The position numbers and the translations under genes were made by a program. From the IMG/VR virus record IMGVR_UViG_3300031992_000052, positions 31,164-95,163 of that record: a stretch of 64,000 nucleotides of DNA. One strand, 5' to 3'. Numbering within the stretch: the first letter of the stretch is position 1; every line of letters begins with the position of its first letter. Under the pieces are notes generated by a model. The model was not told where the DNA came from. It worked only from the letters and a program-made list of their open reading frames with translations, and searched no databases. Positions 10,787 to 45,586 of the stretch are shown here, one piece after another. The stretch is from a virus (Duplodnaviria; Caudoviricetes).

Positions 10787-10835
10787 TCAAGGGCATGGCG
10801 CTGCCCTTGATTTTACGCTCGGATACAGACATATT
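10787..10835. promoter_or_regulatory. back-to-back pair of GCCCTTGA late-promoter-like motifs
   Basis: TCAAGGGC at 10787-10794 (-) and CTGCCCTTGA-N19-CATATT at 10801-10835 (+), between divergent tail genes. Confidence 0.6.
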
Positions 10836-10866
10836 AGGGCATAACGATATATCGGAAATCAACTGT

Positions 10867-13710
10867 ATGGAGCACTTAGCACTTGAAGTTTTTGATCTTA
10901 CGGGCACTGGCAGTCAGTATGCCTGGCTGCCTCGCAACGCCAGCATCACCATCAACGACACGAGCGGCATCTTCGGCAGCGGCGACGTGTGGAGCCACCC
11001 GTTCCGGCTGAACGTCTACGAGAACGCGGGCATCTTCGGCATCAGCGGCGACCTGCACGGTTCGCGGCTTCACGAGCAGATACACAAGCGGCGGGCCCGC
11101 CTGTGGGTGATGGGCCTGCCGCTGTTCCTGGGCTACCTGATGCTGGGCGACGAGGCAGAGGTGGACAAGGACGGCAATGTTGACGTAACGTTCGAGTCGG
11201 GACAGCACACGTTCGACGAGATGATAGAGGGAGCGAAGGCCAATCAGGTGCCTACGATAGGGGACGTGGAAATCGGTATGGCACTATGGCGTAAGCGGTG
11301 GACGCATTGCCGTGTGAAGCTGGAGGCATCGCTGAGACTGCCAAGCGGCTCCCCTTATCACGGTGCCACTCTGAGCGGCCCTGTGTATCATACGGTGAAC
11401 GGCGAATTGGCCGATGAGTTTGAGTTGTCGTGCGACGGCGAGGAAGACGGCAACAGCGTGCAGGAATACCCGCGCATGGTGTTCCCACGGGGCAGCTTCG
11501 ACAACACCGAGGAAGGCGGCGAAGGATGGAACAAGAACTGTATCAACACCAACCTGCCCTATACCGAGGACGAAGACGGCACGCCGACGAGCCCCTACTG
11601 CAACATAGCCCTCTGCTATCAGAAGTACGGTTACTTACAGACCGACAAGGACGGCAACACCAAACCCGACTACAGCGCGGAGCCGGTGGCCCAACGCGGC
11701 TACGAGTACATGCCCGCCGACCGCATTAACTCCGCGCCATGCTTCTATGTTGCCTACTGGGTGCGCTGTCTGATGACCCACCTCGGCATCCATATTGAAG
11801 AGAACCAGATGATGCAGGTGGAAGACCTGCGGCGGCTGTTCTTCGTGAACACCAACTGCGCCTATATAGAGCCGACGAAACTGCGTAGCGAAGACTACAA
11901 CGAACGGTTCGGCCGATACAAGCACGATGTCGTGGTAAACAACAGACTGCAGCGGCCGGTGCCGGAGTATGTTGACTCCGAGAAGAACATCGACAAGAAC
12001 GAAAGCGGATTCCACGGATCCAACGTCGAGATGACCGGTATCGAGAGCGATGTGTCTAACGTGTCGGTCAAGATTAGCGAGGTGATGCCATGGGATTTGG
12101 CGGAAAACTACGCCTATGGACTCAAGAACAACTACTACCATAAGGCTATCGCGTCGAGCGAGTGCTTCCCAGACGTTGACATCAGCGAGGTTATCAAGGC
12201 CATAGAAGACGGATTCGGCGTGCGCTTCCTGTTCAGCGACGACTACAGCAGGGTGCGCATCATACTGCTGCGCAACATTCTGCGCAGCGGCGACGTGCAG
12301 GACATTGCCTGTGAGATAGAGGACGAGAGCGTAAAAGTGGAGAACAGCATCCGTGGGTTCCGCATGACCTACGGCGACAACAAGGACAATACAGAGTTCT
12401 TCTATAAGGGTTTCGACGACAAGCTGCCGAAGAAGAAACCTTACTTTGTGGACGACAGCGACAAGCACGACTATTCGCACTGGGACCTGAATGCCGTATA
12501 TAGCAACATTATCAACAGGGTGTCGGCTTTCGACAAGACCTGCTATGTAACTCCGGTCACCGGCGATGCTTACGGCGTTAAGATTGACAAGGATGCGAAA
12601 CGCTACGACGAGCTGCACCCCTCGCTCTTCGAGTTTGCGGGCTACATGGATGCCATAGACGGCAACTGCACGGGAGAGGACAGCACCGTTCACACCGTTA
12701 ACGTGGGCTTTACGCCGGCCATTATGAACGACCTGAACATGACGCAGGAACGCGGCGGCGATTATCGGCAGCGGTTTGCGCTGTTTGTGGATGCTACCAT
12801 GCGCCCAAGGCGGGTCAACTACAACGATGTCAATGACTATGACAGCTTCAGCGACCCCACCGCGATATATGACACCGAGAAACTGTATGCCAAAGGTTCG
12901 CCAGCCAGGCAGATGATGGCAGGCGACGGCTTTGTCAAGCCGGGCGAGTTTGCCATCCTCTCTGACATGTATGCCGCCGCTACGGATGTAGTAGCTCTCG
13001 TGAGCGGCGTTGTGGGACTTACGCCTCTCACTGCCCACATTAAGTTCGATATGTCTGGCCACATTAACGAGGGTTACCGCCTCTATCTGCAAGATAATTA
13101 CGAGCCTAACGACGACGGCGTGTCGCCCATCGAGAAGAAGGAGTGGGGCCTGACGTTGGGTATCATGCGCGGCTCTGGCAGCGATGCCTACATAGACTAC
13201 CAGCGCGACCCGGAGGATGGCGAGAACAACGACACGTGGGACGTGATGCCGTGCGGCAGCGCAACAGCACACCCCGACACCTGCGACAACTACGGCAACC
13301 GGTGGGACTACAACGGCTCTGAATCTGGTATCGGCAATGCCGACGGACGTATCTCGCTGAAGTTGCGGGCGGAGAAGCTGAACCCGAACTTCGACCCGAC
13401 GCTGCCAGAGACGCACTACGACCAGGAACACCCGGAGCGGAATACAAACCCACGCTATCTCACCATCAGCAACCCGGCGCTGCGTCAGCGCGGGCTGGCC
13501 GATCAGTTCTACAAGGAGTACAGCTACTGGCTGCGCAACGCCCGCGTCGTACAGCAGCCGGTGAGGATGGAACTGGCACAGCTACTAACCATCGACAAGA
13601 CGAAGCGCGTGAGGGTGGGCGACATCATGGGGTTCATCCGCAAGATGCAGTACACCATCAGCAATGAGACTGGGCTGGGTAAGGTTACAATGGAGATTAT
13701 GTATATATAA
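10867..13710 (+). CDS. putative tail/baseplate structural protein
   Basis: ~947 aa from ATG 10867 (MEHLALEV). N-terminal WSHPFRL and C-terminal KRVRVGD..GFIRKMQYTI resemble Bacteroidetes phage minor tail proteins; context agrees. Confidence 0.6.
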   Translation: MEHLALEVFDLTGTGSQYAWLPRNASITINDTSGIFGSGDVWSHPFRLNVYENAGIFGISGDLHGSRLHEQIHKRRARLWVMGLPLFLGYLMLGDEAEVDKDGNVDVTFESGQHTFDEMIEGAKANQVPTIGDVEIGMALWRKRWTHCRVKLEASLRLPSGSPYHGATLSGPVYHTVNGELADEFELSCDGEEDGNSVQEYPRMVFPRGSFDNTEEGGEGWNKNCINTNLPYTEDEDGTPTSPYCNIALCYQKYGYLQTDKDGNTKPDYSAEPVAQRGYEYMPADRINSAPCFYVAYWVRCLMTHLGIHIEENQMMQVEDLRRLFFVNTNCAYIEPTKLRSEDYNERFGRYKHDVVVNNRLQRPVPEYVDSEKNIDKNESGFHGSNVEMTGIESDVSNVSVKISEVMPWDLAENYAYGLKNNYYHKAIASSECFPDVDISEVIKAIEDGFGVRFLFSDDYSRVRIILLRNILRSGDVQDIACEIEDESVKVENSIRGFRMTYGDNKDNTEFFYKGFDDKLPKKKPYFVDDSDKHDYSHWDLNAVYSNIINRVSAFDKTCYVTPVTGDAYGVKIDKDAKRYDELHPSLFEFAGYMDAIDGNCTGEDSTVHTVNVGFTPAIMNDLNMTQERGGDYRQRFALFVDATMRPRRVNYNDVNDYDSFSDPTAIYDTEKLYAKGSPARQMMAGDGFVKPGEFAILSDMYAAATDVVALVSGVVGLTPLTAHIKFDMSGHINEGYRLYLQDNYEPNDDGVSPIEKKEWGLTLGIMRGSGSDAYIDYQRDPEDGENNDTWDVMPCGSATAHPDTCDNYGNRWDYNGSESGIGNADGRISLKLRAEKLNPNFDPTLPETHYDQEHPERNTNPRYLTISNPALRQRGLADQFYKEYSYWLRNARVVQQPVRMELAQLLTIDKTKRVRVGDIMGFIRKMQYTISNETGLGKVTMEIMYI

Positions 13711-13714
13711 GATT

Positions 13715-15795: not shown

Positions 15796-18369
15796 ATGTC
15801 ACAAGCAATTAATATTACTAAAGGTAACGACCACCGTCTGCGCGTAGCCATGACGCGATGGTCAGAGCCGATGGCACTGTCATCGAGCAGCAATGTGCAC
15901 GCCTACGCCGTGAAGAGCGTGACGGGCGTAAGATATGCCCTCGTCGTGCGCTACTCAGCACAGGACGAGGGCGTGATGGAAGTGGACTGGCCTTCGACGC
16001 TGACGGCAGGCTGCTACGGTCTGGAGATTACTGGCACACTGGAGGGTGAGGGCCAGTGGCGCATGGCTGCCGCCAACGCCGTCAAAGTGACACAGGTAAC
16101 GGAGAAAGGCGGCGAGAGCATCACCATGACCGGCGACTCGTTCGATGTGGTGGGCGTAGTGACCGTCTGCGTAGGTTCCACCGGTGTCACCGAAGAGCTG
16201 CGCCAGGCGGTTGCCGACATGATTGAGGAGGAGTATAACGCCTCCGAACGACTGCGCGAAGAAGGCGAGTTTGTCCGTGAGACCCACGAGGACAACCGTA
16301 TACTGGCTGAAGAGGCGCGTGAGGGCAACGAGCTGACGCGAGAGAACAATGAAACCACCCGCCAGACCAATGAGACCGCACGCCAACAGGCAGAGGCGGC
16401 ACGGCAGGGAGCCGAGACGCAACGGCAGGAGGCAGAGTCGCAACGGGCAGGCAACGAGGAGTCACGCCAGCAGGTCTTCGAGACCTCGCAGACCCAACGG
16501 CAATCGTCCTACACCCAGGCCGAAATCGCCCGAGACACGGCCTACCAGACGGCAGAGACAGCACGCAATAACGCCTACAGCACCGCCGAGGGCCAGCGCG
16601 ATACCGCCTTCAGCGAAAAGCAGGCGGAGCGTCAGGCGGCGTACTCAACCGCCGAAGCCGCCCGCGATGCCGCCTTCACTGAAAAGCAGACCCAGCGCCA
16701 GACCTCCTTTGAGACGGCAGAAGCTGGAAGGGCAACAACCTTTACTGCCAACGAGCAACAGCGCGGCACGACATTCGCCACCAACGAGCAGCAGCGGCAG
16801 ACCACCTTCGCCACCAACGAGGGCACAAAGCAAGGTTCTGTAGCAGGCGACGGCAGCCGCTGGGGAATGTATAAGCAGGCAGAGTCACAGCGCGACAGCA
16901 GCTATCAGGCGGCAGAACAGCAGCGCGGCACATCCTACCAGACAGCGGAAGGACAGCGCGACAGCGACTATCAGGCGGCAGAACAGCAGCGCGGCACATC
17001 CTACCAGGCGGCAGAACAGCAGCGTAACACAGAATCGTCGGCAGCAACGTCAGCCGCCAACAATGCCGCCGCAGCCGCCAACAAGGCTGCAGAGGATGCA
17101 GAAGACAAGATAGAAGAGCTGACGGCCAAGGAGGCCACCATTGAAGACCTTGACGAGCTGGCACCCGCCATTACCGTGGCAGACCCAGCCATAGAGGTCA
17201 TCAAGGTGATACTCGCCGACAAGACTGGAGAGCAGAATCTGCAGGGACTGCCCGTCAGGCTGTACCTGTGGGATGACGAGAATGACGCGTGGGTACTTAG
17301 CGAGACAAAGACTGCCGACACCTACGGTATTGCTGTGTTCTCCGTGGAGTATGGGGTGTTGTATAAGATTACGTTTACGCAGGTGACGGGCTGTGAGGTG
17401 ATAGCCGACGTGGAACACCGGGCTGCGCTGATATGGCGTGCCGTGGAAGCTACATACAAACTGCCTGATGCCGGTGAGATACTGACGGTGGTGACACACA
17501 GCCTGAGCGGTTCGGCATACACGCCTCTGGCGGGCGTGACGGTAAGTGTGAGCTACGGATCTGTAGTGAAGAGCAAGCAGACGGACGCACAGGGACAGGC
17601 AGAGTTCACTATCCCCACGGGACAGCAGTATACCGTCAGCACAACGCCTATCGACGGCCTCTATGCCCGATACAACAAATACAGCGAGAAGCATACCGCG
17701 AGCCAGACTCGCAGGACGCAGACCTTCACATATACACCCTGCGAGACCGGCTTCTTCCTGATAGACGGCCAAGGCCGACAGTATAATATAGACGAGTGGC
17801 GTGACGCCGTTACTGCAGGAACGGTGGAAGCTGCCGATGCCAAGCTGGTGAAGATAAGTACAGAAGCCCTTGCCTCGCACGGAGGTGTGTTTGCTATAGA
17901 TATTGATATGATAGCCTACGGCACAGGGCAGCCTGCCAATCAGACATGGGCTGCATCAAACGTAAAGTTCAACTCCATTCCGGAGAACGGCAACAATACA
18001 TCGGCGAACTACTATTACGACGGCTACACAGCATCGCAGCTCATTAAACAGGAAGGTGCCGAGCGTAGCATCGCCACTCCTGCCGTAACAGCCGCCATGG
18101 CTAAGAGTGTGACCGTAGGCGATGAGACATTACCAGGATTCCTTGGCTCGATTGCCCAATGGAGTACGTTGTGGCAGAACCGTGCTGAGATAGATGCACT
18201 GATAGAAGAAGTAAGGCCAGACCACACCAACAGTATCAGCGCGAGAACGACACAGAAATGGACCAGCACACAGAGCAATGCCAACGGCGCCTGGTACTGG
18301 ACTTCGAGTGCCAACTACGGCAACGCCAAGAACAACAGCTACGCTGTCGTTCCCTTCTTCGCGTATTAA
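15796..18369 (+). CDS. DGR target protein 1 (fibre/adhesin-like, C-terminal VR)
   Basis: long ExxR coiled-coil stalk, beta-sandwich repeats, C-terminal WTSTQ..AW..YAVVPFFAY C-type-lectin-like end matching the TR. Confidence 0.9.
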   Translation: MSQAINITKGNDHRLRVAMTRWSEPMALSSSSNVHAYAVKSVTGVRYALVVRYSAQDEGVMEVDWPSTLTAGCYGLEITGTLEGEGQWRMAAANAVKVTQVTEKGGESITMTGDSFDVVGVVTVCVGSTGVTEELRQAVADMIEEEYNASERLREEGEFVRETHEDNRILAEEAREGNELTRENNETTRQTNETARQQAEAARQGAETQRQEAESQRAGNEESRQQVFETSQTQRQSSYTQAEIARDTAYQTAETARNNAYSTAEGQRDTAFSEKQAERQAAYSTAEAARDAAFTEKQTQRQTSFETAEAGRATTFTANEQQRGTTFATNEQQRQTTFATNEGTKQGSVAGDGSRWGMYKQAESQRDSSYQAAEQQRGTSYQTAEGQRDSDYQAAEQQRGTSYQAAEQQRNTESSAATSAANNAAAAANKAAEDAEDKIEELTAKEATIEDLDELAPAITVADPAIEVIKVILADKTGEQNLQGLPVRLYLWDDENDAWVLSETKTADTYGIAVFSVEYGVLYKITFTQVTGCEVIADVEHRAALIWRAVEATYKLPDAGEILTVVTHSLSGSAYTPLAGVTVSVSYGSVVKSKQTDAQGQAEFTIPTGQQYTVSTTPIDGLYARYNKYSEKHTASQTRRTQTFTYTPCETGFFLIDGQGRQYNIDEWRDAVTAGTVEAADAKLVKISTEALASHGGVFAIDIDMIAYGTGQPANQTWAASNVKFNSIPENGNNTSANYYYDGYTASQLIKQEGAERSIATPAVTAAMAKSVTVGDETLPGFLGSIAQWSTLWQNRAEIDALIEEVRPDHTNSISARTTQKWTSTQSNANGAWYWTSSANYGNAKNNSYAVVPFFAY
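16260..17030 (+). repeat. 7- and 11-residue coiled-coil coding repeats
   Basis: near-perfect 33-bp units such as YQAAEQQRGTS at about 16890-17025. Confidence 0.8.
18265..18363 (+). repeat. DGR variable repeat VR1
   Basis: 99 nt; differs from the TR only at TR adenines, plus one extra codon. Confidence 0.95.
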
Positions 18370-18417
18370 TCTCTTTAACTCTTTAACTCTTGAACTCTTT
18401 AGAACAAGCATAGGAAC

Positions 18418-19731: not shown

Positions 19732-19810
19732 TCTCTTTAACTCTTCAACTCTTTATCTCTTTAAAAAATAAGCATCGGACAAACCCTCTAAAAGTAACGA
19801 TTAAAAGAAT

Positions 19811-20206
19811 ATGCTATCAGAGAAATTGCAGATTTACCTTGACACCTACAAGCTGGTAGAAGTGCTTTACAGGCACATGAGCAATGTGCCTAAAGCCTAC
19901 CGCTATGGTGAATACGGGCGTGCATCGAGCATGTCGTTTGAGGCACTGGACATGATTTACGTGGCCAACAGCAGCCAAGAAGAACGGCCAGCAGCGCTGA
20001 CACGCTATCTGCAACTGATAGGCGGTGTGCGCAGCAGAATGCGCCTGATGAGCGAGATGAAAATCCTGCCGCCGAAGATGAGCGTCAACGTTCAGTTCCT
20101 GCTGGATAAAGTCTCGCGTCAGGCTATCGGCTGGCGCAACGCTTCGCAAAGACCAGAGCCGCTACGCCACGGCAACGCGGGAGAGTCGCATCTTGACAAG
20201 AGATGA
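19811..20206 (+). CDS. avd: DGR accessory variability determinant (four-helix bundle)
   Basis: 131-aa basic helical protein (LQIY..Y.L..PK.YRY..G ... QAIGW) directly upstream of the TR and RT. Confidence 0.85.
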   Translation: MLSEKLQIYLDTYKLVEVLYRHMSNVPKAYRYGEYGRASSMSFEALDMIYVANSSQEERPAALTRYLQLIGGVRSRMRLMSEMKILPPKMSVNVQFLLDKVSRQAIGWRNASQRPEPLRHGNAGESHLDKR

Positions 20207-20287
20207 TACGGGTCGTCGCTTTCACTCCCTGTAAAAAAAGGGGAAGAAGCAAAGGATTTGCAATACGAATATAGTAACGACACACTG

Positions 20288-20383
20288 AGCACACAGAACA
20301 ATGCCAACAACGCCTGGAACTGGACTTCGAGTGCCAACAACAACAACAAGAACAACAGCTACGCTGTCGTTCCCTTCTTCGCG
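20288..20383 (+). ncRNA. DGR template repeat (TR)
   Basis: 96 nt with 32 adenines and 11 AAY codons in the VR frame; lies between avd and the RT core. Confidence 0.95.
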
Positions 20384-22284: not shown

Positions 22285-22448
22285 AAAAAAGGTCCCCGAA
22301 CAACTTTTCTTCATTATGTAGCATCTGACCTCTAATAATATAGCCGCTTACGACAGCAAGTTGCCCGGGGACTAAATTGTCACCCTCGTACCGCTGCCGT
22401 AAAGCGTTTGTGCTATATCAATATAGAGGTCAGATGGGTGCAAAGGTA
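22285..22448 (-). ncRNA. candidate structured small RNA with its own -7 promoter
   Basis: TACCTTTG at 22448-22441, 13-bp perfect stem 22322-22334/22424-22436 with nested stems, U6 tail at 22290-22285. Confidence 0.55.
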
Positions 22449-22482
22449 ATAAGAATATTTTAATCTTTAACATTTTTGCACG

Positions 22483-22722
22483 ATGAAAAGAATAGATTTA
22501 GTGGAATTTAACAAGGAACTGCTTCAAAAGTTGAACGAAGCGGGCATCCGATTGGAGGATTACAAGTATTGCGACTTATACCGCGACTACCTTGAATTAT
22601 CAAAAACGATGGTCACTCGCAAGGCAGTTATCCTGACGCTGGCCGAGCGTCATCATATCAGCGACAGACAAGTTTATAACATCTTGCACCACCTTGAAAT
22701 GTCAGTAAACAGAAGACATTGA
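22483..22722 (+). CDS. small HTH DNA-binding protein
   Basis: C-terminal LAERHHISDRQVYNIL helix-turn-helix. Confidence 0.7.
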   Translation: MKRIDLVEFNKELLQKLNEAGIRLEDYKYCDLYRDYLELSKTMVTRKAVILTLAERHHISDRQVYNILHHLEMSVNRRH

Positions 22723-29932: not shown

Positions 29933-31753
<1,821 letters not shown>

Positions 31754-33195: not shown

Positions 33196-33394
33196 GGTCG
33201 TATCGTTTTCCCCAATATCGTGCGAAAGGGTTGGGAAATCAAGGGCAGGTTCTATGGTCGCTCCGCTCGAAATTTGATTTAAAATTTATATTTAAAATTA
33301 AGTTTAAAATTATTCCTTCGGCGACAGCCCATTCTAAATAGAATTCTAAATACTAATTCTAAATATAATTTCAGGCGAAGCGCCCAATGAAAGA

Positions 33395-36300
33395 CTACAG
33401 GTACTTCTCGCCGTGCCTTTGCGCCTCCTTCTGCATCTTGTTATACATAGCCGGGATGCCGTCGCTGCCCGTCCATTTGTTGACGGCCTTGATGCCGTTC
33501 ACGAGGGCGCTCTCCAGGAGGTCGCTCTGGCGGTCGATGCTGGCCTGCAGCGAGGCAAGCATCTCGATGCTCATGCCGCCCGTTCCCTCAGCCGTCAGCC
33601 CTCCGCCATCAGCCATCTCCTCGAACTCCCCGATGTTGCCGTCGGCAAAGGCTCTCACGCCAGTGCCGCGACGGCGGCGGGTGCTCAGCCCCGCGATGCT
33701 GCCGCCGTTGTAGAGCGTCTGTATGTCGCGCCAGATGCCGGTCTCGTTCATCTGCAGCAGGCGGGTGGTCTTGGCGTCGATGATCGCCTCTCGCCCTGCC
33801 TCGCCCACGAGGTGGAACTCCGGCCCGTTGGTGATGTGCGTCTTGGCGTCCTTGCCCATGTACTTTGCGCGGTAGGTCTTGCCGTCGGCCCCGTCCACGT
33901 TGTACTGTCTGCCAGGTGTCAGCGAAGCAGGGTCGGTCAGCTCGTTCACGTTACCCTCTGCGTAGGTCAGCATACCCGTGGAGAGGCGGCCAGCACCTAC
34001 CGATGCGCCGGTGGCTTGGGCGATCTCCGACTTCGACTTGGCAATCTTCGACGTAGCCAGTCCCATCAGTCCGCCGATAAGGGCGGTGAATACGCCGACG
34101 GCCACAGGGCCACCGATAGGACCGAGTTCTTTCAGCGTCTTTGATATCCACGAAGGAGCATTGGCAGCAGTCTCACCCGTCGATGCAGCCATTGATGCGG
34201 TCAGCATCGAGATAGCGGCCTGACCAGCTGCCTGCACAATCATCATCTGAACCTTCTGCGACGTGTCGAGGTTGTCGTTGCTCATTGTTTGGTAAGCAAT
34301 GCCGTACATGTTTGCGGCGGCAGTCATGGCGGCAAACGACGATTTGTTGGTCTTTACCATCTGCTGGTCGTTCTGCTGCTCGCTCTTCTTCACCATCTCC
34401 TGAGCCTGCATCTTCGCTTGGGCGGTCTCGGTACTTGCGGCGATCTCCTTCTGCTTCAGTGCGTCCAGTTTCTCACCCGTAGCCTCTATCTGTTCGTCGG
34501 TGATGGATAGCGGCGACGGTACGTACCCTGGCAATTCAGTCAGCATCTCAGTCTTCTCTGTCTCGGCAGCGATAGCCTGCTCCTTATATGTCTGCCACAG
34601 CAGCCCCATGTTCTCCTGACTCTTGGCTACTTCCTCGTCGGTCATCTGCCAAGGGGCTTTCGGAACACCCTCGCCGCTCGGCGTTTCGCCCGTTGGCTGT
34701 ACGGGAGCGATAATCTGTCCCTGCTCGTCCACGGCGAATCCCTCGGCATTGCGCTTGTAGCCGTCGCCTGAACCGCTGCCGCCCGCTGCGCCCATTGAGG
34801 CATAGAGCGCTTCGGTGTTCTTGATGACCGCCTGTGTGTTGGCATCAATGACAGAGTTCTGCAACAGGGCGTTGAGCTGGTCGGTGATGGTTTCGCTCAT
34901 CTTCATGTTGATGTCGTCCCAGAGTTTCTTCCACGCCTCGGCCTGGGCGTTTTGCACTTCTATCTCATGCTGCCTTTCCAGTGCCTGGCTCTCGTCCAGA
35001 TATTCATAGTGCGCCTTTGCGTCGCTGGTGCCTGCATCGTCTATCACCACGTAGGTGCCGGCTCCGGGGCCGCCTTTGCCCGTCAAGTCCAACTTCGCCC
35101 GCTCGTTGTAATACTCCGCGTCACCCGCATGGCTCGCCTCGAATACTCCCTGCAGCGAGCTTGTCAGCAGGTCGGCCCACTCCTTCAGTTCGGTGTACAG
35201 GCGGTTTTGCGATTCCTCCGTGCGGGCAATAATCTCCTCGCGCTGCTTGGCCAGTTCGGTCTCCTCCTTGGCCAGCGAGAGGTTGAGCGACATCTGGGCG
35301 TGCTTGGCATCCAGCCGCAGACGTTCGGCTTCGTTGGTCTTGCCCTCATCCTCGCGCAACTTGGCTTCACGCAGCAGGTCATCGACGCGCTGCTGTCCCG
35401 TCTTGCGTACCAGGTTGTAGTAGTGCTCCTGCATCCGCAGTTGCAGTTGCAGTTGCTTGATGGCCAGTTTGTCGGCCACGCGCTCCGAGGCCACCCCTGC
35501 ACCTATCAGGTTGTTGGCGCGGCTCACGCTGCTCTGCTGCACGCCCAGGGCGCTGATGGCTGCCTCGTAGGTGGCCTTCATGCTCTTGCCGTTGGGCAGT
35601 ATGGCGTCGTTCCATGCGATGTCCACCTGCTTCTTCACCTGCGAGGCTTCCTTCTTGATGGCATCCTGAACCTGGTCGTACACCTCATGCAGCTGTGCTA
35701 TGATGGCCCGCTTCTCCTTGTCGGCGTTCTCGCTATTGATGATGGCGTCTGCCCATGAGCCAAGCCCGTTCTTGCGCATGTCCTCGGCCAGCTGGTCGAA
35801 GGTCAGGCTGTAGGCGTTCTCTGCCTCCTTCAGCAGGAATGTCAGTCGCTTGGTGTTCTCCTCCATGAACTTGCCGTCCTCGGGCACGCCGTCCTTGAAC
35901 AGCAGCCCCATCTTCGTCAGGTTGTTCTGCAGGTTGTCCGTGATGCCGTTGAACGGGCGCTCCTTGGCGATGATGGCCTCTATCTCCTTCAGTTGCTTCA
36001 CAACGATGGCCTGCATGGCGGTCAGGTCTTTCTGCGCCTCGCGGTTGTTATACTTGCGGTCGCGCTCCCAGGCGGCAATCCACTCGGCCTCGATGGCCGT
36101 CCACGACACCTCGTCGAGTTCCTTGACCGATGCCCACCACTGGCGGAACTGCTGAATGAACTGCTTGTCCTCGCTGGTGAACGTCTGGCGCAGTTCCGAC
36201 CGCTTCGTCAGGTGCTCCTGCTCCAGCGCATCCAGCCGGCGGTTATACTCCGCCTCGGTCATCTGCTCGTTGGCGCGGGCTTCCTCTATCAGTTCCTTGC

Positions 36301-39300
36301 GCTCCGAGTAGTAGCGGTCCAGTTCGGCAATGGCTCCCTCGCTCTCCGGGGTCTTGGGTTTCTTCTTCGACCTGCCGCCTTTCTCAGGGTTCTTCCAGTC
36401 GCCTGTCGGTGTCAGGTTACGGGCATCAAGCTCCTCCTGAATCTTCAGTCGCTCCTCGTTGTACCAGGCTATGGCGTCGCGCATGTTCTTGATACCCTTG
36501 CGGGTGGCTTCGTCCATGAACTTCTTATCCATCGACAGGACTTTCTGTACATCGGCACCGCCAGCCAAGGCACGCACACGCTCCAGCATCTCCTTGCGGC
36601 GCTTCACCAGGGCGTTGGCATCCCACTGCTCGTAGGGGTCAACACGCTTGTCGTAGTTGCCGTAGGGGCCACGGTGGTTGAGAGGGTCGTCGTTATCGTT
36701 GTTATTGTTGTTGTAATTGTTATTACCTACGTCTTGATTAACTCGCTGCCTTTGTGTCTCGCGCGTCTGACTTAGGCGGTTCTGATCAATAGACGGCATT
36801 ATCATCCAAGGGAGGTAAGCAGACTGAGCGTCTTTGACAGTTGGTTGCGGCAGGAGTGGAACTTGGATTTCCTTTGGCGTTGGGGCGTTTCTTAATTCTT
36901 CTGCAAGGGTCTGCAGTCCGTTAATTGCTCCAGCCAGGTTTTCGTAGGCTTTGGCGATGTCCTCTTCTGAAGAGTTGACAGCCGTAATAACTTTTACAGC
37001 CCTTTCTCCTTGTTCCTTAAAATTGTTTATCATTTCCTGCGTATCTTCGACACGCCTCTTTTCTGCCGACGATATCTGAGCATTGATGTCTTCTGATGCC
37101 TTTCCTATCTCTTTGGTCATTTCAAGATAGGTTTTCGTGTATTCTGTTCTGAAGTTCTTGATAGTATTACCTACCCAGCCCCATTCACCTGACATACGAG
37201 ATCCAACACCCGTAATGTTAGGTAACAAACCCGTTTCTGTGATTTGTGGAAAAGTTTCCTCCAGATATTTATATACCCATGTAGCAATCAAAACCTCTGC
37301 GTTCTCGGATGCTTCTTTCGGATTGTCCACACCTTTCGACTGAAGATACTGTTCAATCTTGTTAGGGTCGATAGCATCCGTAGGAATTTGGAAGGAATCG
37401 GAGTTGGGATTATAACTGATTTGCCTGAGTGTTTCCTTGATGTCGTTCCTGGCACGGGCAATCTGCTCGGCACTCAGGCCAGCGTCGCGTAAATCATCAA
37501 CAAAACCAATCCACTCTTCCGCCAGATTCTCACTGTAGTGCTCCTTTACCCTCGACTCTACCTGCGTTTTTTCCCTTTGCAACATCTCTGCTTCGAGGGC
37601 AGCAGCTATACGCTCGTGCGCTAACGCCACAAGGTTAGAGTTCTCAGCGTCAGTCAGTAAGAAGCCAAGATACTGACTGTACTTCTGATTGATTTCGTTC
37701 ATCAGATTCTTACGCTTCTCCATATTGCCGTATGCAGCATAGTACGATTTTACGAGTTTGTCAAGTTTGTCTTTTTCCTCGTCAATCTTAGCATTCAATT
37801 CCTCAACCGCTTTCGTGGAAATGTCAACTTCTCCAACCCATGTTGACAAAGCATAGACAGCATAAAGAATAGCCGTCGCCAGAGCCATCCATATATTGGC
37901 CATCATTTCCTTGTTGAGCGCCTTCGTAGCCATCTTGGCCCTTATCGTTGCCACACTTTGTGCTGCTGTTGCTCTTTCCGCCTCGGTCATAGCAGCAGCC
38001 TCTGCTAACTTGGCATTACGGAGGGACTTGCTAAGCATTATATACTCTTGCGTATTTGCTATTAGTCCCTTCAGACCAGTGCCCATAGCCTTCAGTCCGC
38101 TTATAGACTTAAAGAAGATACCCTCGCCAAGACCAATTTTCAAGAGGCCCCAATAAACGATAAATGTTTTCAAAAGAACTGAAACGGCTTTCAGCGCAGG
38201 GCTCACATTGCCTGACAGCAGATTCACTAATCCGCGCAAAAGATCGATGATGACGCCGAGGGCTCTCTGCGCTTCATCTCCAATCCACATTTCTTCAAAC
38301 TCATTTTTCAGCCGCTCCCACTTTGCCGCCGTCGTCTCGTTCATCTTGTCGAACTCCTGCTGTATGGCAATATTCTCCTCATACGCCTCGCTGGCTACGC
38401 CCAATTGTCTTTCCAGCTCCTCAACATTCTGACTCAGGCCTGCGAACACAATACCTGCACGGGCACCCTGCTGGTTCAGTTCCTTCATTATGTCCTGGAA
38501 ACCGGCAGCCTCCATCATTTTCTCCACCTTGTCGGCCACGCCGTCTGCATCGTTTTCAATGCCTTCTGCCGTGATGCCGCTACGCTCGCGGATGGCCTTG
38601 AACAGGTCGATGATGACGGTCATGCCCTGCCCCTCAGCAAAGCGTCGCTTGATGTCCTCTTCGGTTTTCCCAATAATTGCGCCTATCTCGTAAGCGTTAT
38701 TCCTGATAGCCGGAATCATTCGCGACAGGGCAGTAGCAGACATCTCAACTCTCATACCCAGGCTGCTGATCGTCGAACCCAGTGCGGCCACCTGGTCGAT
38801 GGTGATGCCGCTCTGTGCGCCCACGGCTCCCACGCGCTTCACGAGGTCGGTGATTTCGGGGGCGGTCGAAGCACTCGTGGCACGCAGACGGTCGATGGTC
38901 GATGCAATCTTCTCCATGGCGACGGCCGTTGCCGACGAGCCCTCGATGGTGCCCTCCTGCAACTGCTTGCGTATCTTGTCCACCTCGCCCGTGGCGATGG
39001 CCACACGCATCATCTCCGTAGCGGCCTCGCGTCCCATTTCGGGCAGGGCAATCATCAGTTTGTTTGCAGCCTCGGTGAAGCCCTGCACGTCCTCCAGGGT
39101 CTTCAAGCCCAGCTGTCCGGCACTGGCGGAAATTTCCATGAGTGAGGTCAAACTGGTCCTGACGTCCATTTTCTTCAGGTTCTCCGACAGGCGCCCCACC
39201 TCGTCGGCGGTGAAGCCCGTGGTCTTGCGCACCTCACCCATGCGGTCGGAGAGGTCCATGAGGTCGCGGGCGGTGTTGCTCACCTTCTGCCACAGTTCGT

Positions 39301-42300
39301 TGAACCCCATGTACATCACGACGTAGGTCTTCAGGCGGTTGAAGGCTTTCTCCCAGGCGGTGGCACTGGCCTTGGCCTGTCCCTCCATTTCCTTCATCAC
39401 GTTCTTGGCGTTGCGCACCTGTTCGGCGAAGCGTTTGTACTCCGAGCTGTTCTGGCCGAGCGACTGCTGCATCTGGCGCAGCTGTCCGTCGGCACGCTTG
39501 ATGGCGGCGCGCAGCTCGTCGAGGTTCACGGCGTTGGCAGGGGTCTCGATGAGCGTGCGCATCTTCTCCTGCGACATGTTGACGTTATCCTGCTCGAACT
39601 TCAGCGAGCGCAGCTTCTTCGTCAGGTCGTCGAGTTCCTTCTCCTGAGCGTCCACGGCGTTGCCAAGGTCGCGCTCGGCCCTTATCTGCTTGATTAGTTC
39701 CTCGCGGCGGCGCTCCAATGCCTGCGTGGCCTGCTGTATCTCTTGCGCACTGGCGGAGAAACCTTTCTTGCCAGCGCCCTCGGCAATCTTCTGCGCGTCG
39801 GCCAGCTTCATCCACTCGCCCGTGGCCTCCTTCAGTTCCTGGTTCATCTCGCCGATGGTCTTGCGCAGTTCCTCCCACCGCTTCTGCCCGTCGGCGGTAG
39901 AGCGGTCCTGAGCCATCGCCTCGGCCTCCAGCACCTTGATACCCTCCTGCATCTCATCGCGGGTCATGCGGCGTGCTTTCTGCAACTGCTCCTCCACCTC
40001 CACCAGTCCGAGGGCTTCGGCCTTCTGCTGCTTGTAGTAGTCGAGAACGTCTTGGGTGGTTTGCTTCTGCCTGCTTAGCCATTCCACCTGTCCTTTCTGA
40101 CCTGTGCGGGTGGTGGTGCCGTCGTCGAGTATAAGGGTCTCGCCCTCGATGGCATCTCGCAAACCCTCAATCCTGTAGCCCTCGCGCTTATACTCACTCG
40201 TCTGCTTGCGGAACCACGAGCTGTTAGCGTGCTTCTTTTCCAGTTCGGCCAGTTCCTTCTCCATACGTTCGAGTTCGTCAGTAGCCTCCTTGATCTGCTG
40301 CTCGTAGTAATCCACGTTCTCTGCAGTTCGTTTAATATCATCATCAAACACCGACGTGTGCTGACTCAGCTGCTCGTCTATCGACTGCCCCGGCGTGGTG
40401 ACCACCGTGCCTTTCATGTGCTCACTGAACCGCTTCATCACCTCGTCGGCATCGGCGAACCCCGTGCTTATCTTTGCCAGTGCGGTTTCGAACCGTGCCA
40501 GTTCCTGCCGCTCGTCAGCGGTAGCGTCGCCGTCGCGCTCCTTCTCGTGGATCAGACTTACCAGCGTTTCGCGCTGCCGTTGTAGGGCTTCGGTGGCTTT
40601 CTTCGTCTCTGCGTCGGTGGTCACGAATCCCTCGGTGCCTATGCTATCGGCATACTTCATGGCATCTGCCACGGTCATCCATTCCCCGCGCAACTCTGCC
40701 GACTGCTTCTTCAGTTCTTCGAGGCGGAGGGTGAGCTGGCCGATGGCGCGTTCGCCGCGCTCCCACTCTTCCTTGTCGATGGTGGGGTCGAGCTTGCGGT
40801 TCGACTCACGGAGGCGGGCCAGTGCCTGCTCCATCTTGTCGATGCTGCCGGAGCGCAGTCGGTCGGCCTCGCGGGTGGCTTCCTGCTCGGTGGTGATGTT
40901 GCGCTGCATGGCGGCGGTATCGGCGTTGATTTCCTCGGTGAGGTGGCTGTATGCCTGGCCATTCTTCAGCTGTTCGTCGGTGAGTCCGCGCAGTTCGTCT
41001 TCCACTTTCTTGACGGCCTCGCCCTCGTGCTTCTTGGCTTCGGCCTGTGCGTTGCGGGCGTCGGTCTGTTCCTGTTCGGCCCTGGCTAAGCGCTGGTTGG
41101 CGGTCACGGTCTCGTCCACCATGCCGTTCAGCTTGTCTTGCTGCTGGTTCAGCTCGGCGGTCTTCTGCGAGAGTTGTTCCTGCTTCTGTGCCAGCTGCTC
41201 GGAGGACTGAGCGGACTGCTGCTGGGCGGTGGCGGACTGCTGCTGGGCGGTGGCGAGTTTTCCTTCTGTTTCCGTTATGTCAGTAAGGACTTTCCCTTTT
41301 TCCTTAACGGCAGCAAGCAGCGCATTGGTGGCCTCTGTTGACTTCTCAGTCAGTTCGGTCATCCTATCGGAATTGTCGGGCGTTTCCAGAGCAGACTTGT
41401 ATTTCGCTTCAAGTGTTTCGATTTGCTTGATGGCAGACTCGTACTCTTTGATAAGAGCCTTGTAGTAGTCGATAGCGGCCTGAACACCCTGCTTGGACTG
41501 GCCATCCTCGTTATAGAGGGATTTCTTCCAGTCGGTATCTTTTAGGGCTTTCTTGTATTCATCCTGCAGTTTCTTCATCTGCTCCAGGTTGAACTTCAGG
41601 TCGTCAAGGCTCGTGGATTTGCCCTGATCTGTAAAGCTCGCTGCCCTCTCATAAAGGTAGGCTCTTGCGTTTTCAAGATTACGCTGTACGGATGCTTTGA
41701 AGTCTGTTTCTGATACAGAATGGCGGCTCATCATCTGGACATCTGCCGCACCGATGGTATCAGCATATCCGTTATAAGGTATGAAGTGGTCTTGTGGAAG
41801 TTTCTCCAAAGAAGACTTCATTTTGTCGCGGAACTTTGCATAAGCCTGCTCGAACTTTTTCATTTTGTCTCTTGGAGTCGGCAACTTGCTAAGCTCTTCA
41901 AATTCGGCATGGTAACGGTCGGATAATTCACCCTGCGTCTTGATAACTCCATCAAGCTCGTCCCTCTTGGCCTTTAGGCTTTCCAGCTTTGCCTTCAACT
42001 CATCTATCCCGCTCGTGTCAATCTTCGGCTCCGCCTTCACCTCCCCCATCTTCCTGATATCGTCGGTCAGCCCCTGCACTTCGGTGCGCAGTTTCTCCAC
42101 GGTCTGCTTCTGCTCGTCGTAGGCCTGCTGTTGGGTCTTGGCGGCACGGCGGGCGGCGTTCAGCTCCTTGTTGGCATCGTCCACGCGCTGGTTGCGTATG
42201 GCGCGGTCCTCCTTCTCCTGTGCTTTCAGTTCGTCGCGCCGGTCCGTGAGCGTCTGCTGCTGGATGCTATTGTTTTCCATCTTCTGCTCCAGCTCGCGGC

Positions 42301-43117
42301 GCTGCTGCTGCTTCAGGTCGAGCCGCTGGCGCAGCTCGTCGTTCTCGCGGCGTGCGGCATCGGCGCGTGCCTCGGCATCGTGTATGGCCTGCTGGCTGCC
42401 GTCGTGGTCGGTGGCGTAGGCTATGCGCATGGCTTCCTCGCGGTCGGCCACCTCGCCGCGCAGACGGCGGTTCTCCACGGCCACGGCCTCGATGGCCGCC
42501 CCCACCTTCTGCCAGTAGTTGGTCAGCTCGTTCTTCTCGGCCTCGGTCTCGGCGGTCTGCATCAGGTCGGCCAGCCCGTCGCGAGTGCGCTTCAGGGTCT
42601 GCTCGGTGACGGTGCCGCCCCGGGCTATCTCCTCCACCACGTGCTGGTAGTCGGTCTTGAAGCGCTTCACCACCACGTCGGCCTCGGTGGTGATGGCCTC
42701 TATCAGTCGCATCTCTTCAGCGTCGCCCGGGTCGCCGCCAGCTTTCAGGTTGTCGTACCGCTTCTTCATGCCGTTCACGCCGGCACGTATGGCCTTGATG
42801 CTCATGTCCTCGATGTTGCCCATGGCGTAGTGGCGGTAGAGTTCGCCCGCTGCCTTCACGCCACGGGTATAGTCCTTCATCGTGGTGTTCACGTCCTTCA
42901 GGTCGCTGTTCAGCCGTCGCAGCTGCTTGCGGTATTCCTGCAGTGCGGAGTTGTCGTCGGGCACGTCGCCGAGGGCCTTGATGCTGGCGTTCACTTCGGC
43001 TACCTGCTGGTTCAGTTTCTCGGCATGCGTCTGCAGGGCCTGCATCGTAGCGTTGGCCATGCGGGAGTCTACCTCGAATCTTACTCTTGACACTAAGTCT
43101 TGATTTCGTCTGCTCAT
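33395..43117 (-). CDS. tail tape measure protein
   Basis: 3240 aa, helical; LSDRMGEVRKTTG..L.KMDVRTS..AGQLG core; C-terminal GPEFHLVGEAGREAIID. Confidence 0.92.
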   Translation of the reverse strand: MSRRNQDLVSRVRFEVDSRMANATMQALQTHAEKLNQQVAEVNASIKALGDVPDDNSALQEYRKQLRRLNSDLKDVNTTMKDYTRGVKAAGELYRHYAMGNIEDMSIKAIRAGVNGMKKRYDNLKAGGDPGDAEEMRLIEAITTEADVVVKRFKTDYQHVVEEIARGGTVTEQTLKRTRDGLADLMQTAETEAEKNELTNYWQKVGAAIEAVAVENRRLRGEVADREEAMRIAYATDHDGSQQAIHDAEARADAARRENDELRQRLDLKQQQRRELEQKMENNSIQQQTLTDRRDELKAQEKEDRAIRNQRVDDANKELNAARRAAKTQQQAYDEQKQTVEKLRTEVQGLTDDIRKMGEVKAEPKIDTSGIDELKAKLESLKAKRDELDGVIKTQGELSDRYHAEFEELSKLPTPRDKMKKFEQAYAKFRDKMKSSLEKLPQDHFIPYNGYADTIGAADVQMMSRHSVSETDFKASVQRNLENARAYLYERAASFTDQGKSTSLDDLKFNLEQMKKLQDEYKKALKDTDWKKSLYNEDGQSKQGVQAAIDYYKALIKEYESAIKQIETLEAKYKSALETPDNSDRMTELTEKSTEATNALLAAVKEKGKVLTDITETEGKLATAQQQSATAQQQSAQSSEQLAQKQEQLSQKTAELNQQQDKLNGMVDETVTANQRLARAEQEQTDARNAQAEAKKHEGEAVKKVEDELRGLTDEQLKNGQAYSHLTEEINADTAAMQRNITTEQEATREADRLRSGSIDKMEQALARLRESNRKLDPTIDKEEWERGERAIGQLTLRLEELKKQSAELRGEWMTVADAMKYADSIGTEGFVTTDAETKKATEALQRQRETLVSLIHEKERDGDATADERQELARFETALAKISTGFADADEVMKRFSEHMKGTVVTTPGQSIDEQLSQHTSVFDDDIKRTAENVDYYEQQIKEATDELERMEKELAELEKKHANSSWFRKQTSEYKREGYRIEGLRDAIEGETLILDDGTTTRTGQKGQVEWLSRQKQTTQDVLDYYKQQKAEALGLVEVEEQLQKARRMTRDEMQEGIKVLEAEAMAQDRSTADGQKRWEELRKTIGEMNQELKEATGEWMKLADAQKIAEGAGKKGFSASAQEIQQATQALERRREELIKQIRAERDLGNAVDAQEKELDDLTKKLRSLKFEQDNVNMSQEKMRTLIETPANAVNLDELRAAIKRADGQLRQMQQSLGQNSSEYKRFAEQVRNAKNVMKEMEGQAKASATAWEKAFNRLKTYVVMYMGFNELWQKVSNTARDLMDLSDRMGEVRKTTGFTADEVGRLSENLKKMDVRTSLTSLMEISASAGQLGLKTLEDVQGFTEAANKLMIALPEMGREAATEMMRVAIATGEVDKIRKQLQEGTIEGSSATAVAMEKIASTIDRLRATSASTAPEITDLVKRVGAVGAQSGITIDQVAALGSTISSLGMRVEMSATALSRMIPAIRNNAYEIGAIIGKTEEDIKRRFAEGQGMTVIIDLFKAIRERSGITAEGIENDADGVADKVEKMMEAAGFQDIMKELNQQGARAGIVFAGLSQNVEELERQLGVASEAYEENIAIQQEFDKMNETTAAKWERLKNEFEEMWIGDEAQRALGVIIDLLRGLVNLLSGNVSPALKAVSVLLKTFIVYWGLLKIGLGEGIFFKSISGLKAMGTGLKGLIANTQEYIMLSKSLRNAKLAEAAAMTEAERATAAQSVATIRAKMATKALNKEMMANIWMALATAILYAVYALSTWVGEVDISTKAVEELNAKIDEEKDKLDKLVKSYYAAYGNMEKRKNLMNEINQKYSQYLGFLLTDAENSNLVALAHERIAAALEAEMLQREKTQVESRVKEHYSENLAEEWIGFVDDLRDAGLSAEQIARARNDIKETLRQISYNPNSDSFQIPTDAIDPNKIEQYLQSKGVDNPKEASENAEVLIATWVYKYLEETFPQITETGLLPNITGVGSRMSGEWGWVGNTIKNFRTEYTKTYLEMTKEIGKASEDINAQISSAEKRRVEDTQEMINNFKEQGERAVKVITAVNSSEEDIAKAYENLAGAINGLQTLAEELRNAPTPKEIQVPLLPQPTVKDAQSAYLPWMIMPSIDQNRLSQTRETQRQRVNQDVGNNNYNNNNNDNDDPLNHRGPYGNYDKRVDPYEQWDANALVKRRKEMLERVRALAGGADVQKVLSMDKKFMDEATRKGIKNMRDAIAWYNEERLKIQEELDARNLTPTGDWKNPEKGGRSKKKPKTPESEGAIAELDRYYSERKELIEEARANEQMTEAEYNRRLDALEQEHLTKRSELRQTFTSEDKQFIQQFRQWWASVKELDEVSWTAIEAEWIAAWERDRKYNNREAQKDLTAMQAIVVKQLKEIEAIIAKERPFNGITDNLQNNLTKMGLLFKDGVPEDGKFMEENTKRLTFLLKEAENAYSLTFDQLAEDMRKNGLGSWADAIINSENADKEKRAIIAQLHEVYDQVQDAIKKEASQVKKQVDIAWNDAILPNGKSMKATYEAAISALGVQQSSVSRANNLIGAGVASERVADKLAIKQLQLQLRMQEHYYNLVRKTGQQRVDDLLREAKLREDEGKTNEAERLRLDAKHAQMSLNLSLAKEETELAKQREEIIARTEESQNRLYTELKEWADLLTSSLQGVFEASHAGDAEYYNERAKLDLTGKGGPGAGTYVVIDDAGTSDAKAHYEYLDESQALERQHEIEVQNAQAEAWKKLWDDINMKMSETITDQLNALLQNSVIDANTQAVIKNTEALYASMGAAGGSGSGDGYKRNAEGFAVDEQGQIIAPVQPTGETPSGEGVPKAPWQMTDEEVAKSQENMGLLWQTYKEQAIAAETEKTEMLTELPGYVPSPLSITDEQIEATGEKLDALKQKEIAASTETAQAKMQAQEMVKKSEQQNDQQMVKTNKSSFAAMTAAANMYGIAYQTMSNDNLDTSQKVQMMIVQAAGQAAISMLTASMAASTGETAANAPSWISKTLKELGPIGGPVAVGVFTALIGGLMGLATSKIAKSKSEIAQATGASVGAGRLSTGMLTYAEGNVNELTDPASLTPGRQYNVDGADGKTYRAKYMGKDAKTHITNGPEFHLVGEAGREAIIDAKTTRLLQMNETGIWRDIQTLYNGGSIAGLSTRRRRGTGVRAFADGNIGEFEEMADGGGLTAEGTGGMSIEMLASLQASIDRQSDLLESALVNGIKAVNKWTGSDGIPAMYNKMQKEAQRHGEKYL

Positions 43118-43850: not shown

Positions 43851-43875
43851 GGTGTGAGAGGGTGAGCGGGCGGGC

Positions 43876-44516: not shown

Positions 44517-44612
44517 GTGGTCTCTCAATCCACCTGCAAGGTGATCTATTAAAGCACCTGCAAGGTGATCTCTCAATGCAGTTGCAAGGTGATCTATTAA
44601 AGCAGTTTCAGG
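44517..44612. repeat. 4 x 24-bp tandem repeat
   Basis: GTGRTCTMTYAAWSCASYTKCARG units in an ABAB pattern. Confidence 0.9.
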
Positions 44613-44618
44613 GGCGGT

Positions 44619-45269
44619 TTAATCCGTTGTCGTGTTCGGGTCGGCGGGCGACTCCCTCTCCTCCTCCATCCGCCTGACGATGACGTTGGCGAGGCAGTGC
44701 TGCCAGCGGCGTTTTAGCTCGCCGTATACGCGCTCAATGGTGTCGATGCGCTTGTAGAGTTCTGCTTCCATCTGTGCAAGAGACCCCTTGCCTTCTATGG
44801 GCAGGTCAGGCTTCTCAAGCTCCTGCTCGCACCATGTTACGAAGCGCATCGTGCGCAATGTCGCCTGGTCCCGTGCAAGACGAATACGTTCAGCCAGACG
44901 TCGGTAGTAGGCTGCGTCGCGTACTGATGGCTGATGGCTTTTCGATGGCTGATGGCTGATGGCTGAAAGGCTACGGGTAGGCGCGTCAGCGGGAATTGGC
45001 TGATGTGCGTCGTCGGCAGACCCTCTTACATCTTCCTTCTTACTTCTTACATCGCACATCGACTCTAAGAGCGCCTGTGCCGCCAGCTCCGCGTCGTCGG
45101 GCTCAGGGGTGAGCGGTGCGGGCTTCACGCCCTCGATGCGGAGGGGAACAGGCTCCACCCCCTGCCCCATTCCCGACGTGCCGTCGCCTACCCGTAGCCT
45201 TTCCTGCTGAGGGGCCTGGGTGGCAGCCTTGTGTCGGAAGTATTTCTGTATTTTCTCTTTCAGTGTCAT
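44619..45269 (-). CDS. hypothetical protein (first gene after a GCCCTTGA motif)
   Basis: 216-aa ORF. Confidence 0.7.
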   Translation of the reverse strand: MTLKEKIQKYFRHKAATQAPQQERLRVGDGTSGMGQGVEPVPLRIEGVKPAPLTPEPDDAELAAQALLESMCDVRSKKEDVRGSADDAHQPIPADAPTRSLSAISHQPSKSHQPSVRDAAYYRRLAERIRLARDQATLRTMRFVTWCEQELEKPDLPIEGKGSLAQMEAELYKRIDTIERVYGELKRRWQHCLANVIVRRMEEERESPADPNTTTD

Positions 45270-45586
45270 GCCCGCAAGATATGTCGCGGGGCTGCGGGGT
45301 TCAAGGGCAGAGGGTATCGGCTGTCGCCGAGAAATGGTCTAAAAATGAATACTAAAAATTGTCTATAAATATTTTTAATCCCATTTTTATTTCCATTTCT
45401 TGCGAAGCAATCCTAAGAGATTAAAGGACTGCTATCGGCTGTCGCCGAGAAATTGCGAGACTGCCGGCTGTCGCCGGGAAATTATACAAATTTAATTCAG
45501 AATTTCTCAAAAAGAAGATTTGAATAATTTGAAACCAATTTGAAAAATTTCCGCCCGTCAGGGCGCAGAAACCTTGAACCTTAAAC

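Follow-up and report, generated by a model that had tools for sequence, protein, structure and literature searches.

In several phages, promoters are built from a host-type box and an element that the phage supplies. In the middle promoters of T4, a host-type −10 box is accompanied at a fixed distance by a phage box that takes the place of the −35 element or covers it and is read by MotA/AsiA. In P1 (Lpa), Mu (Mor/C), and lambda (CII), a phage element at or near −35 is joined to a host −10 box, and a small protein activates the scattered late operons. The late promoters of SPO1 (gp33/gp34) and T4 (gp55) are read by alternative sigma factors, and the late −10 box of SPO1 is GATATT. For Bacteroidales phages, we know of no described mechanism that times gene expression. 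Here, we analyzed nine copies of a motif, GCCCTTGA with a second box 19 bases downstream, in a 64,000-base stretch of DNA (hereafter, the window) that comprises bases 31164–95163 of the 95,163-bp IMG/VR viral contig IMGVR_UViG_3300031992_000052 (Caudoviricetes). These sites are real and strongly conserved, and we conclude that they are promoters of the phage virion module, belonging to a class that is private to one phage family and is built on the promoter frame of the host. Our search of the literature on the motif and on late promoters of Bacteroidota phages returned nothing relevant, and no expression-timing mechanism for a GCCCTTGA-type motif was found in full-text literature.

The consensus promoter of the Bacteroidota primary sigma factor consists of TTTG at −33 and TAnnTTTG at −7, and the −33 element carries little information (PMC7366714). 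Another class, SM5 of Flavobacterium psychrophilum, was defined by mapping transcription start sites and has a TAnnTTGY box at −12 to −5, in which the gap between TA and TTG is one base shorter than in the primary promoters; its diagnostic bases are G at −6 and a pyrimidine at −5 (PMC9723704). SM5 is backed by mutagenesis at one operon, and its sigma factor was left open in that study (PMC9723704).

The phage sites share features with each of these systems. Like the T4 middle promoters, they are hybrids of a host-type box and a phage box at about −30/−35 at a fixed distance; they differ in the host phylum, the sequence of the box, the absence of MotA/AsiA homologues, and the retention of the host −33 TTG inside the box. 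The missing MotA/AsiA homologues weaken the case for membership in the T4 class, not for a functional analogy. The elements of P1, Mu, and lambda are dyads or direct repeats, whereas the phage word is single and asymmetric, and no homologue of their activators was identified. As in SPO1 and T4, the sites appear to form a dedicated late class, and several boxes in the window begin with GATATT, but the family has no detectable sigma-like gene. In common with the Bacteroidota primary and SM5 promoters, the sites have a TA..TTG box whose predicted position is about −12 to −5, preceded by a TTG at a distance of some 20 nt, and leaders before the start codons that are A-rich and lack a Shine-Dalgarno sequence; they differ in an invariant 9–10-bp YTGCCCTTGA around the −33 TTG, which has no known counterpart in host promoters and is absent from the chromosomes of the candidate-host MAGs. 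The kind of system (phage late promoters with a dedicated reader) is classical, and the hybrid design, the phylum, and the lack of a recognizable reader are new.

Number, spacing, and placement of the sites

An earlier note on this DNA had listed nine copies of the motif, eight with identical spacing and one shifted, all lying upstream of genes and pointing into them, and our counts agree with this description. The word GCCCTTGA occurs nine times in the window, against 2.16 ± 1.45 times in shuffled sequences, and none of 100 shuffles reached nine. The full pattern GCCCTTGA-N19-NATHWT occurs eight times, against 0.00 expected, and the hexamers are exactly those listed (CATATT, GATATT, GATATT, TATCAT, TATAAT, GATATT, TATCTT, and TATCTT). 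The ninth copy (10787–10794, minus strand) has the box TAATTTGT at N18. In a comparison of four genomes, namely our contig (G000), a 145-kb relative (G003), and two phage contigs carried by metagenome-assembled genomes (MAGs; G007 and G009), the orthologues of this ninth site had N19 in G003 and N20 in G007 and G009. The positions given in the earlier note are those of the conserved 10-mer YTGCCCTTGA, which starts 2 nt outside the 8-mer (10801 vs. 10803; 29881 vs. 29879).

According to codon-usage-based gene calls, all nine sites in the window are intergenic and aimed into the next gene, and the predicted +1 lies 0–66 nt ahead of the start codon at every one of them. The genes downstream include those for the tape measure, the head protease, and a fibre-like protein. 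The tenth GCCCTTGA of the contig, at genome position 9128 (minus strand) outside the window, is intragenic and has no second box. Given that 7.3% of the contig is intergenic, at least nine intergenic copies out of ten correspond to P = 6e-10. Across the four genomes, the boxed copies were intergenic or merely touched the end of a called gene, with two exceptions that sit inside gene calls that appear to begin too far upstream (one was checked on the sequence), and every copy without a box was intragenic.

Some further observations concern single sites. A search of the contig with one mismatch allowed gave a single extra candidate, ctGCCCTTGT-N19-GAAATT at genome position 5652 (plus strand, outside the window), which lies between genes, upstream of an early-block gene of 129 aa; this site is perhaps a weak member of the class, or else a chance match. 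At P4 (sites are numbered P1–P9 as in Table 1), the TGA within the box (26309–26316, plus strand) also terminates the preceding gene (25921–26316), so that coding sequence overlaps the promoter word. The predicted +1 of P9 coincides with the A of the ATG at 45269 (minus strand) of a 216-aa gene whose relatives encode 176–187 aa; either the P9 mRNA would be leaderless or the true start codon lies further down.

A private upstream word on a host-type promoter frame

The motif was found upstream of the protease gene in 18 of 18 viral relatives, down to a protein identity of 45%, and in eight MAG copies. The orthologous set of this promoter (P6) comprises 27 promoters with 26 distinct sequences, and was aligned with the 8-mer as the anchor. 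Pairwise identity was 0.95 for the 10-mer, 1.0 for the 8-mer (the anchor), and 0.74 for the downstream box; in the upstream flank, spacer, and leader, it was 0.28–0.36, which is the random level. The logo of the 35 boxed sites in the four genomes reads Y-T-GCCCTTGA-Y-Y, spacer, T-A-t-a-T-T-G-C, N4, and an A-rich run. The N19 spacing was present in 34 of these 35 sites, and 29 had an A at 5 nt past the downstream box, which, judging from its position and conservation, is likely to be +1.

The invariance of the 9–10 bp holds across phages of 47–63% GC. Five complete relatives contained 11–14 copies of the 8-mer each, vs. 2–7 copies of the reversed control word. A scan of IMG/VR for the word plus the box returned at least 119 stretches. 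Among the matches listed, about 45 were family members, often with several sites, and about 70 were single copies without family genes, as expected by chance; nearly all of the listed multi-copy matches were family members.

We also searched five rumen Bacteroidales MAGs (2.3–3.5 Mb) for GCCCTTGA-N19-NANNTT. In GTDB, the phage protease gene is confined to rumen MAGs of Bacteroidales that bear the label Bacteroidaceae, Prevotellaceae, or Prevotella, and the contigs of 110–126 kb that carry it are evidently binned phage genomes. In the five MAGs, 53 of 81 matches fell on seven contigs, of which five held the protease gene and two had clustered sites. The other 28 matches mostly lacked the T-A start of the box, several recurred between MAGs, which suggests coding sequence, and they were about as many as the matches to the reversed control pattern (0–4 per genome). 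Because the word plus box is nearly confined to phage contigs in these MAGs, no host regulon of this type is visible. The upstream word (TGCCCTTGA) is invariant, private to the phage family, and lacking in host-type chromosomes.

The motif had originally been described as non-host, which holds for the upstream word and does not hold for the geometry (TTG-N20-TA) or the TAnnTTGY box, both of which are host-type. In 34 of the 35 sites, 20 nt separate the TTG of the word from the TA downstream; the fourth base is C, giving CTTG. The family consensus of the downstream box is TAnnTTGC (G in 22/35, then C in 20/35), which has the TAnnTTGY form by which SM5 is defined; TAnnTTTG is possible in at most 3 of the 35 sites, and the box of several relatives is the Bacteroidota TAnnTTTG, as TAAATTTG, TAATTTTG, or TACATTTG. 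Upstream of the intergenic TAnnTTTG boxes of these phages (some of the special sites are among them), TTG-N20-TA was the commonest spacing (17 at N20, 8 at N19), and this geometry is that of the host-type promoters in the early regions of the phage. With +1 placed at the conserved A, the downstream box occupies about −12 to −5, the word about −41 to −32, and its TTG −35 to −33, which is the place of the host −33 element on the SM5 register. Since the TTG-N20-TA geometry and the TAnnTTGY box match host classes, the promoter frame is that of the host, and the special part is the invariant YTGCCC before the TTG together with the A-Y-Y after it. Motif, geometry, placement, conservation, and absence from host-type chromosomes are all direct observations.

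The −35 element of Escherichia coli sigma-32 (RpoH) is CCCTTGAA. The resemblance of CCCTTGA to an RpoH-type −35 element, which the earlier note had pointed out, does not extend beyond these letters. The −10 box of the phage sites is not CCCCATnT but TAnnTT(G/T) in all sites, and the spacer is longer. When the RpoH profile (TIGR02392) was applied to the five MAGs, none reached the cut-off of 323 bits; the best matches, at about 160 bits, were primary-type sigma factors of about 290 aa. In the MAGs G007 and G009, there are two primary-type sigma genes of about 286 aa each (L191, L193; L192, L194).

The proposed reader of the upstream word

We infer that the sites are active as promoters late in infection and that their reader is of phage origin. 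The explanation that we favor, and consider somewhat more likely than not, is that host polymerase works with a phage-encoded factor that reads the upstream word, in the manner of the T4 middle promoters. Host core RNA polymerase with a primary-type sigma factor would read the −7 box, and the phage factor would read the private word YTGCCCTTGA and either recruit sigma region 4 or replace it, acting as an activator whose site overlaps −35 or appropriating sigma as T4 MotA/AsiA do. As a result, gene blocks on both strands would fire together. The conservation of the word in the family and its absence from host-type chromosomes fit a phage-supplied reader. Of the original proposal, a dedicated late regulon read by a phage-encoded or alternative sigma factor or by an activator, the dedicated class ahead of the virion module is retained; no sigma-like gene was found with profiles or a hidden Markov model (HMM) in the family genomes searched. 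More tentatively, the reader might be a specificity factor of a new family (maybe C + D, described below) that redirects host polymerase to the 10-bp word over −33, an analogue of the T4 appropriation that would have evolved independently in a phylum whose primary sigma has a different way of reading promoters; we regard this as somewhat less likely than not.

Several points weigh against this explanation. The search for the reader gene gave no reader protein, and C and D have no DNA-binding signature; the core 73-aa helix-turn-helix (HTH) protein varies in its recognition helix, and the three-HTH protein is not core. The MAGs count as candidate hosts only through the phage contigs binned into them. 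The TAnnTTGY promoters of F. psychrophilum work without such a word, so host polymerase alone might suffice. Furthermore, the promoter starts are predicted, and the RNA data described below are assembled contigs, which show neither 5' ends nor expression levels.

Three HTH proteins were also considered as readers. The 270-aa protein with three HTH motifs, which was the sole weak match to sigma region 4, occurs in only G000 and G003 of the four genomes and in 2 of 18 further relatives, and was rejected for its absence from G007, G009, and most relatives. G003 has the identical box but a different recognition helix in its 73-aa HTH protein. The 185-aa HTH protein is missing from G009. In the gap before the 73-aa HTH gene (window 22285–22500), a minus-strand TACCTTTG box and hairpins are kept in G000, G003, G007, and G009; the G007 gap is also faced by a private promoter, downstream of which lies a GGGGAC...GTCCCC hairpin. 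MotA (PF09114) and AsiA (PF09010) gave no match at E ≤ 1 in five family genomes. T7-type RNA polymerase (PF00940) gave no match in five genomes, but the control genomes gave none either; the bipartite, host-like geometry argues against promoters of the T7 type.

Proteome comparison revealed a conserved cluster of small genes, A-B-C-D. Gene A is DUF4494, for which we found no literature and no solved structure, and gene B shows similarity to replication-initiation proteins in their C-terminal region. C and D were present in 27 of 27 family genomes examined. D was the last gene of its block, with the virion block next, in all 22 genomes in which gene order was read; in the remaining five, C and D were found, adjacent in most. 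Neither has a sequence match in Pfam, PHROG, or PDB, and the ESM Atlas was uninformative. In AlphaFold2 models (pLDDT 78.5 for C and 75.0 for D), C is alpha/beta and had no fold match (Foldseek E > 0.1; VIA-align Z ≤ 3.8), and the conserved core of D (residues 52–134) folds as an SH3-like barrel whose matches to NdhS, L21e, and KOW domains are generic (Z ≤ 7.2, which falls in the background range stated for the tool); Foldseek returned nothing at E ≤ 0.001 for either. As modeled, neither looks like a sigma factor or a classical DNA binder. The D family comprises 258 clusters, all unnamed and confined to Prevotella/Bacteroidaceae-type sources. C and D are leads by position and universality, and nothing more.

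A cryptic, divergent phage sigma factor, or a two-protein sigma such as T4 gp55/gp33 or SPO1 gp33/gp34, could read both boxes in place of the host sigma. A high-information −35-type word with a rigid spacer is typical of alternative sigmas, the −7 box has a consensus of its own (TAnnTTGC) rather than a random decay from TAnnTTTG, and the family-private small genes C and D, found in all 27 genomes, mark the early/late junction in those whose gene order was read. We nevertheless consider such a factor unlikely. Sigma70_r2 (PF04542) had no match at E ≤ 1 in six family genomes, and the host sigma-A HMM, run with --max on the six-frame open reading frames of four genomes, found nothing better than E = 0.9; a divergent gp55-like protein could escape both searches; hhalign of the candidate families against host sigma-A gave probabilities of ≤3.7%; and the alpha/beta and SH3-like barrel models of C and D are not the helical domains of a sigma factor.

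The same low probability applies, in our view, to the host machinery alone, whether its primary sigma at very strong promoters or an alternative sigma or activator of its own. The geometry equals that of host-type promoters, a TAnnTTGY class exists in a Bacteroidota host (PMC9723704), and two of the MAGs hold a second sigma-A-like paralogue. However, one would expect a host regulator to act on genes of the host as well, and the word plus box is essentially absent from the 2.3–3.5-Mb MAG chromosomes; moreover, a stretch of 9–10 bp that is invariant across phages of 47–63% GC is unlike the low-information host −33 element (PMC7366714).

We are equally doubtful that the word is an operator at promoters read by the host, where a phage repressor over −33 would silence the virion genes early or in a carrier/plasmid state. 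Although the word overlaps the −33 position and the phage encodes several HTH proteins, it has no symmetry and mostly occurs as a single copy, in contrast to the typical operators of dimers, and its strict N19 register with the −7 box suits a partner of the polymerase, not a blocker. In addition, phage late genes are as a rule under positive control. It is highly improbable that the sites, instead of being promoters, are a repeat element or serve recombination or packaging, since nothing beyond the repetition itself favors this, the flanks are unrelated between copies, each boxed copy is aimed into a gene 0–66 nt before its start codon, and the sites persist at orthologous positions in DNA that has otherwise diverged to the random level.

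Regarding transcription, sheep-rumen metatranscriptome runs from two samples contain the phage, with some contigs at 100% identity. The summed contig depth, which takes in contigs of other organisms, was tens to >100 across 27.3–30.0 kb (the block of the putative capsid gene, P5). It was 14–102 at 44.7–45.3 kb (the first gene under P9) vs. 0.25–2.2 just upstream of P9, and it did not exceed about 4 along the greater part of the tape-measure gene. Some RNA contigs bridge P5. The higher depth in the 30.0–30.7 kb bin sits on a repeat. Window positions 30200–30233, in the acidic tail of the protease/scaffold gene, draw many unrelated, loose-ended RNA contigs, which inflates the depth there. The uneven depth is a weak hint of strong late transcripts starting at P5 and P9. 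Among the matches listed, no RNA contig ended at a predicted +1, and 1678 more pieces exist.

The motif provides a clean, family-wide, testable handle on expression timing in Bacteroidales phages, with a regulon of about 9–14 promoters per genome and a start point predicted for each. It reduces the possible readers to a few universal phage genes without annotation, and in rumen metagenomes it flags the virion modules of a phage family that can otherwise hardly be annotated. Should one phage protein turn out to be the reader, the word and the factor would constitute an orthogonal expression switch for Bacteroides/Prevotella, in which genetic tools are scarce.

Features of the window and of related phages

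The coordinates of the sites and of the genes and hairpins around them are summarized in Table 1. The predicted +1 positions of P4, P5, P6, P7, and P8 are 26348, 29840, 31780, 33207, and 43724, respectively, and that of P9 is 45269.

Table 1. Promoter-like sites P1–P9, candidate reader genes, and other features, in window coordinates.
Feature	Coordinates	Strand	Sequence elements	Genes that the site would drive, or description	Predicted +1
P1	10761..10796	−	box 10787–10794, N18, −7 box TAATTTGT	2058-aa tail-fibre-like gene	10756
P2	10801..10837	+	CTGCCCTTGA-N19-CATATTAG	947-aa and 355-aa core genes	10842
P3	14838..14874	+	CTGCCCTTGA-N19-GATATTCG	119-aa membrane (spanin-like) gene, 131-aa gene	14879
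P4	26307..26343	+	CTGCCCTTGA-N19-GATATTAT	167-aa core gene	
P5	29845..29881	−	CTGCCCTTGA-N19-TATCATAA	469-aa gene, 206-aa and 233-aa genes	
P6	31785..31821	−	CTGCCCTTGA-N19-TATAATGC	head-maturation protease/scaffold gene	
P7	33212..33248	−	CTGCCCTTGA-N19-GATATTGG	426-aa core gene	
P8	43729..43765	−	TCGCCCTTGA-N19-TATCTTCC	169/179-aa gene and tape-measure gene	
P9	45274..45310	−	CTGCCCTTGA-N19-TATCTTGC	216-aa and 187-aa genes	
Terminator-like hairpin	33371-33387			directly upstream of P7	
Terminator-like hairpin	45552..45565	−		between gene D and P9	
Gene C, 163 aa	46869..47360	−		adjoins D in cluster; candidate trans factor by position only	
Gene D, 158 aa	45587..46063	−		candidate trans factor by position only; followed by hairpin, then P9	
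270-aa protein	46060..46872	−		three HTH motifs, weak sigma-70 region 4 match; just upstream of P9; not core	
73-aa HTH protein	22501..22722	+		only obviously DNA-binding protein in all four genomes; weaker candidate	
185-aa protein	3751..4308	+		Xre-type HTH and coiled coil; in 3/4 genomes; weaker candidate	
Tape-measure gene	33395..43117	−		Pfam PhageMin_Tail; 3221–3240 aa; under P8	
Head-maturation protease/scaffold gene	29933..31714	−		phrog_53, E 3.5e-36; under P6	
2058-aa tail-fibre-like gene	4534..10710	−		collagen repeats; under P1	

P1 stands back-to-back with P2, and this divergent pair is present in relatives too. Orthologues of P4 were found in L004, L019, G007, and G009. The 469-aa gene under P5 presumably encodes the major capsid protein; its profile had no match in PDB. 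P9 is the first promoter of the minus-strand virion block, and the hairpin between gene D and P9 would end the non-virion transcription unit upstream of it.

The contig is linear, with 56% G+C, and is about 80% complete. No near-identical DNA was found among GenBank phages, and the relatives are viral contigs of 100–145 kb from rumen-type metagenomes. The family most likely consists of siphovirus-like phages of roughly 100–145 kb that infect rumen Bacteroidales. Other recognizable genes encode a primase-like protein, a DNA methyltransferase, and a reverse transcriptase of the diversity-generating retroelement (DGR) type (PHROG E 1.6e-85); most of the remaining genes had no PHROG or Pfam match. 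The DGR cassette (reverse transcriptase and target genes) lies downstream of P3 at window positions 15796–21545 (plus strand). P3 probably drives the target genes and the reverse transcriptase too, and the cassette is probably co-transcribed with the virion module.

At genome positions 13074–13150 (minus strand, outside the window), a host-type promoter, CTTG-N20-TATCTTTG, precedes a CRISPR (clustered regularly interspaced short palindromic repeat)-like repeat ending in ATTGAAAC, after which a Cas12a-type repeat follows. A host search with the 26-nt core of the CRISPR-like repeat gave no exact match in 185k species genomes. A core 192-aa protein of the relative G003 (L021:11356-11934, minus strand) has a Tad2-like (anti-Thoeris) domain (E 8e-22), and the region encoding it is missing from our contig. 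Finally, a 671-aa protein at window positions 53470–55485 (minus strand) has Hint/intein and LAGLIDADG matches. Because its homologues in three relatives are only 283–325 aa long, it probably contains an intein with a homing endonuclease.

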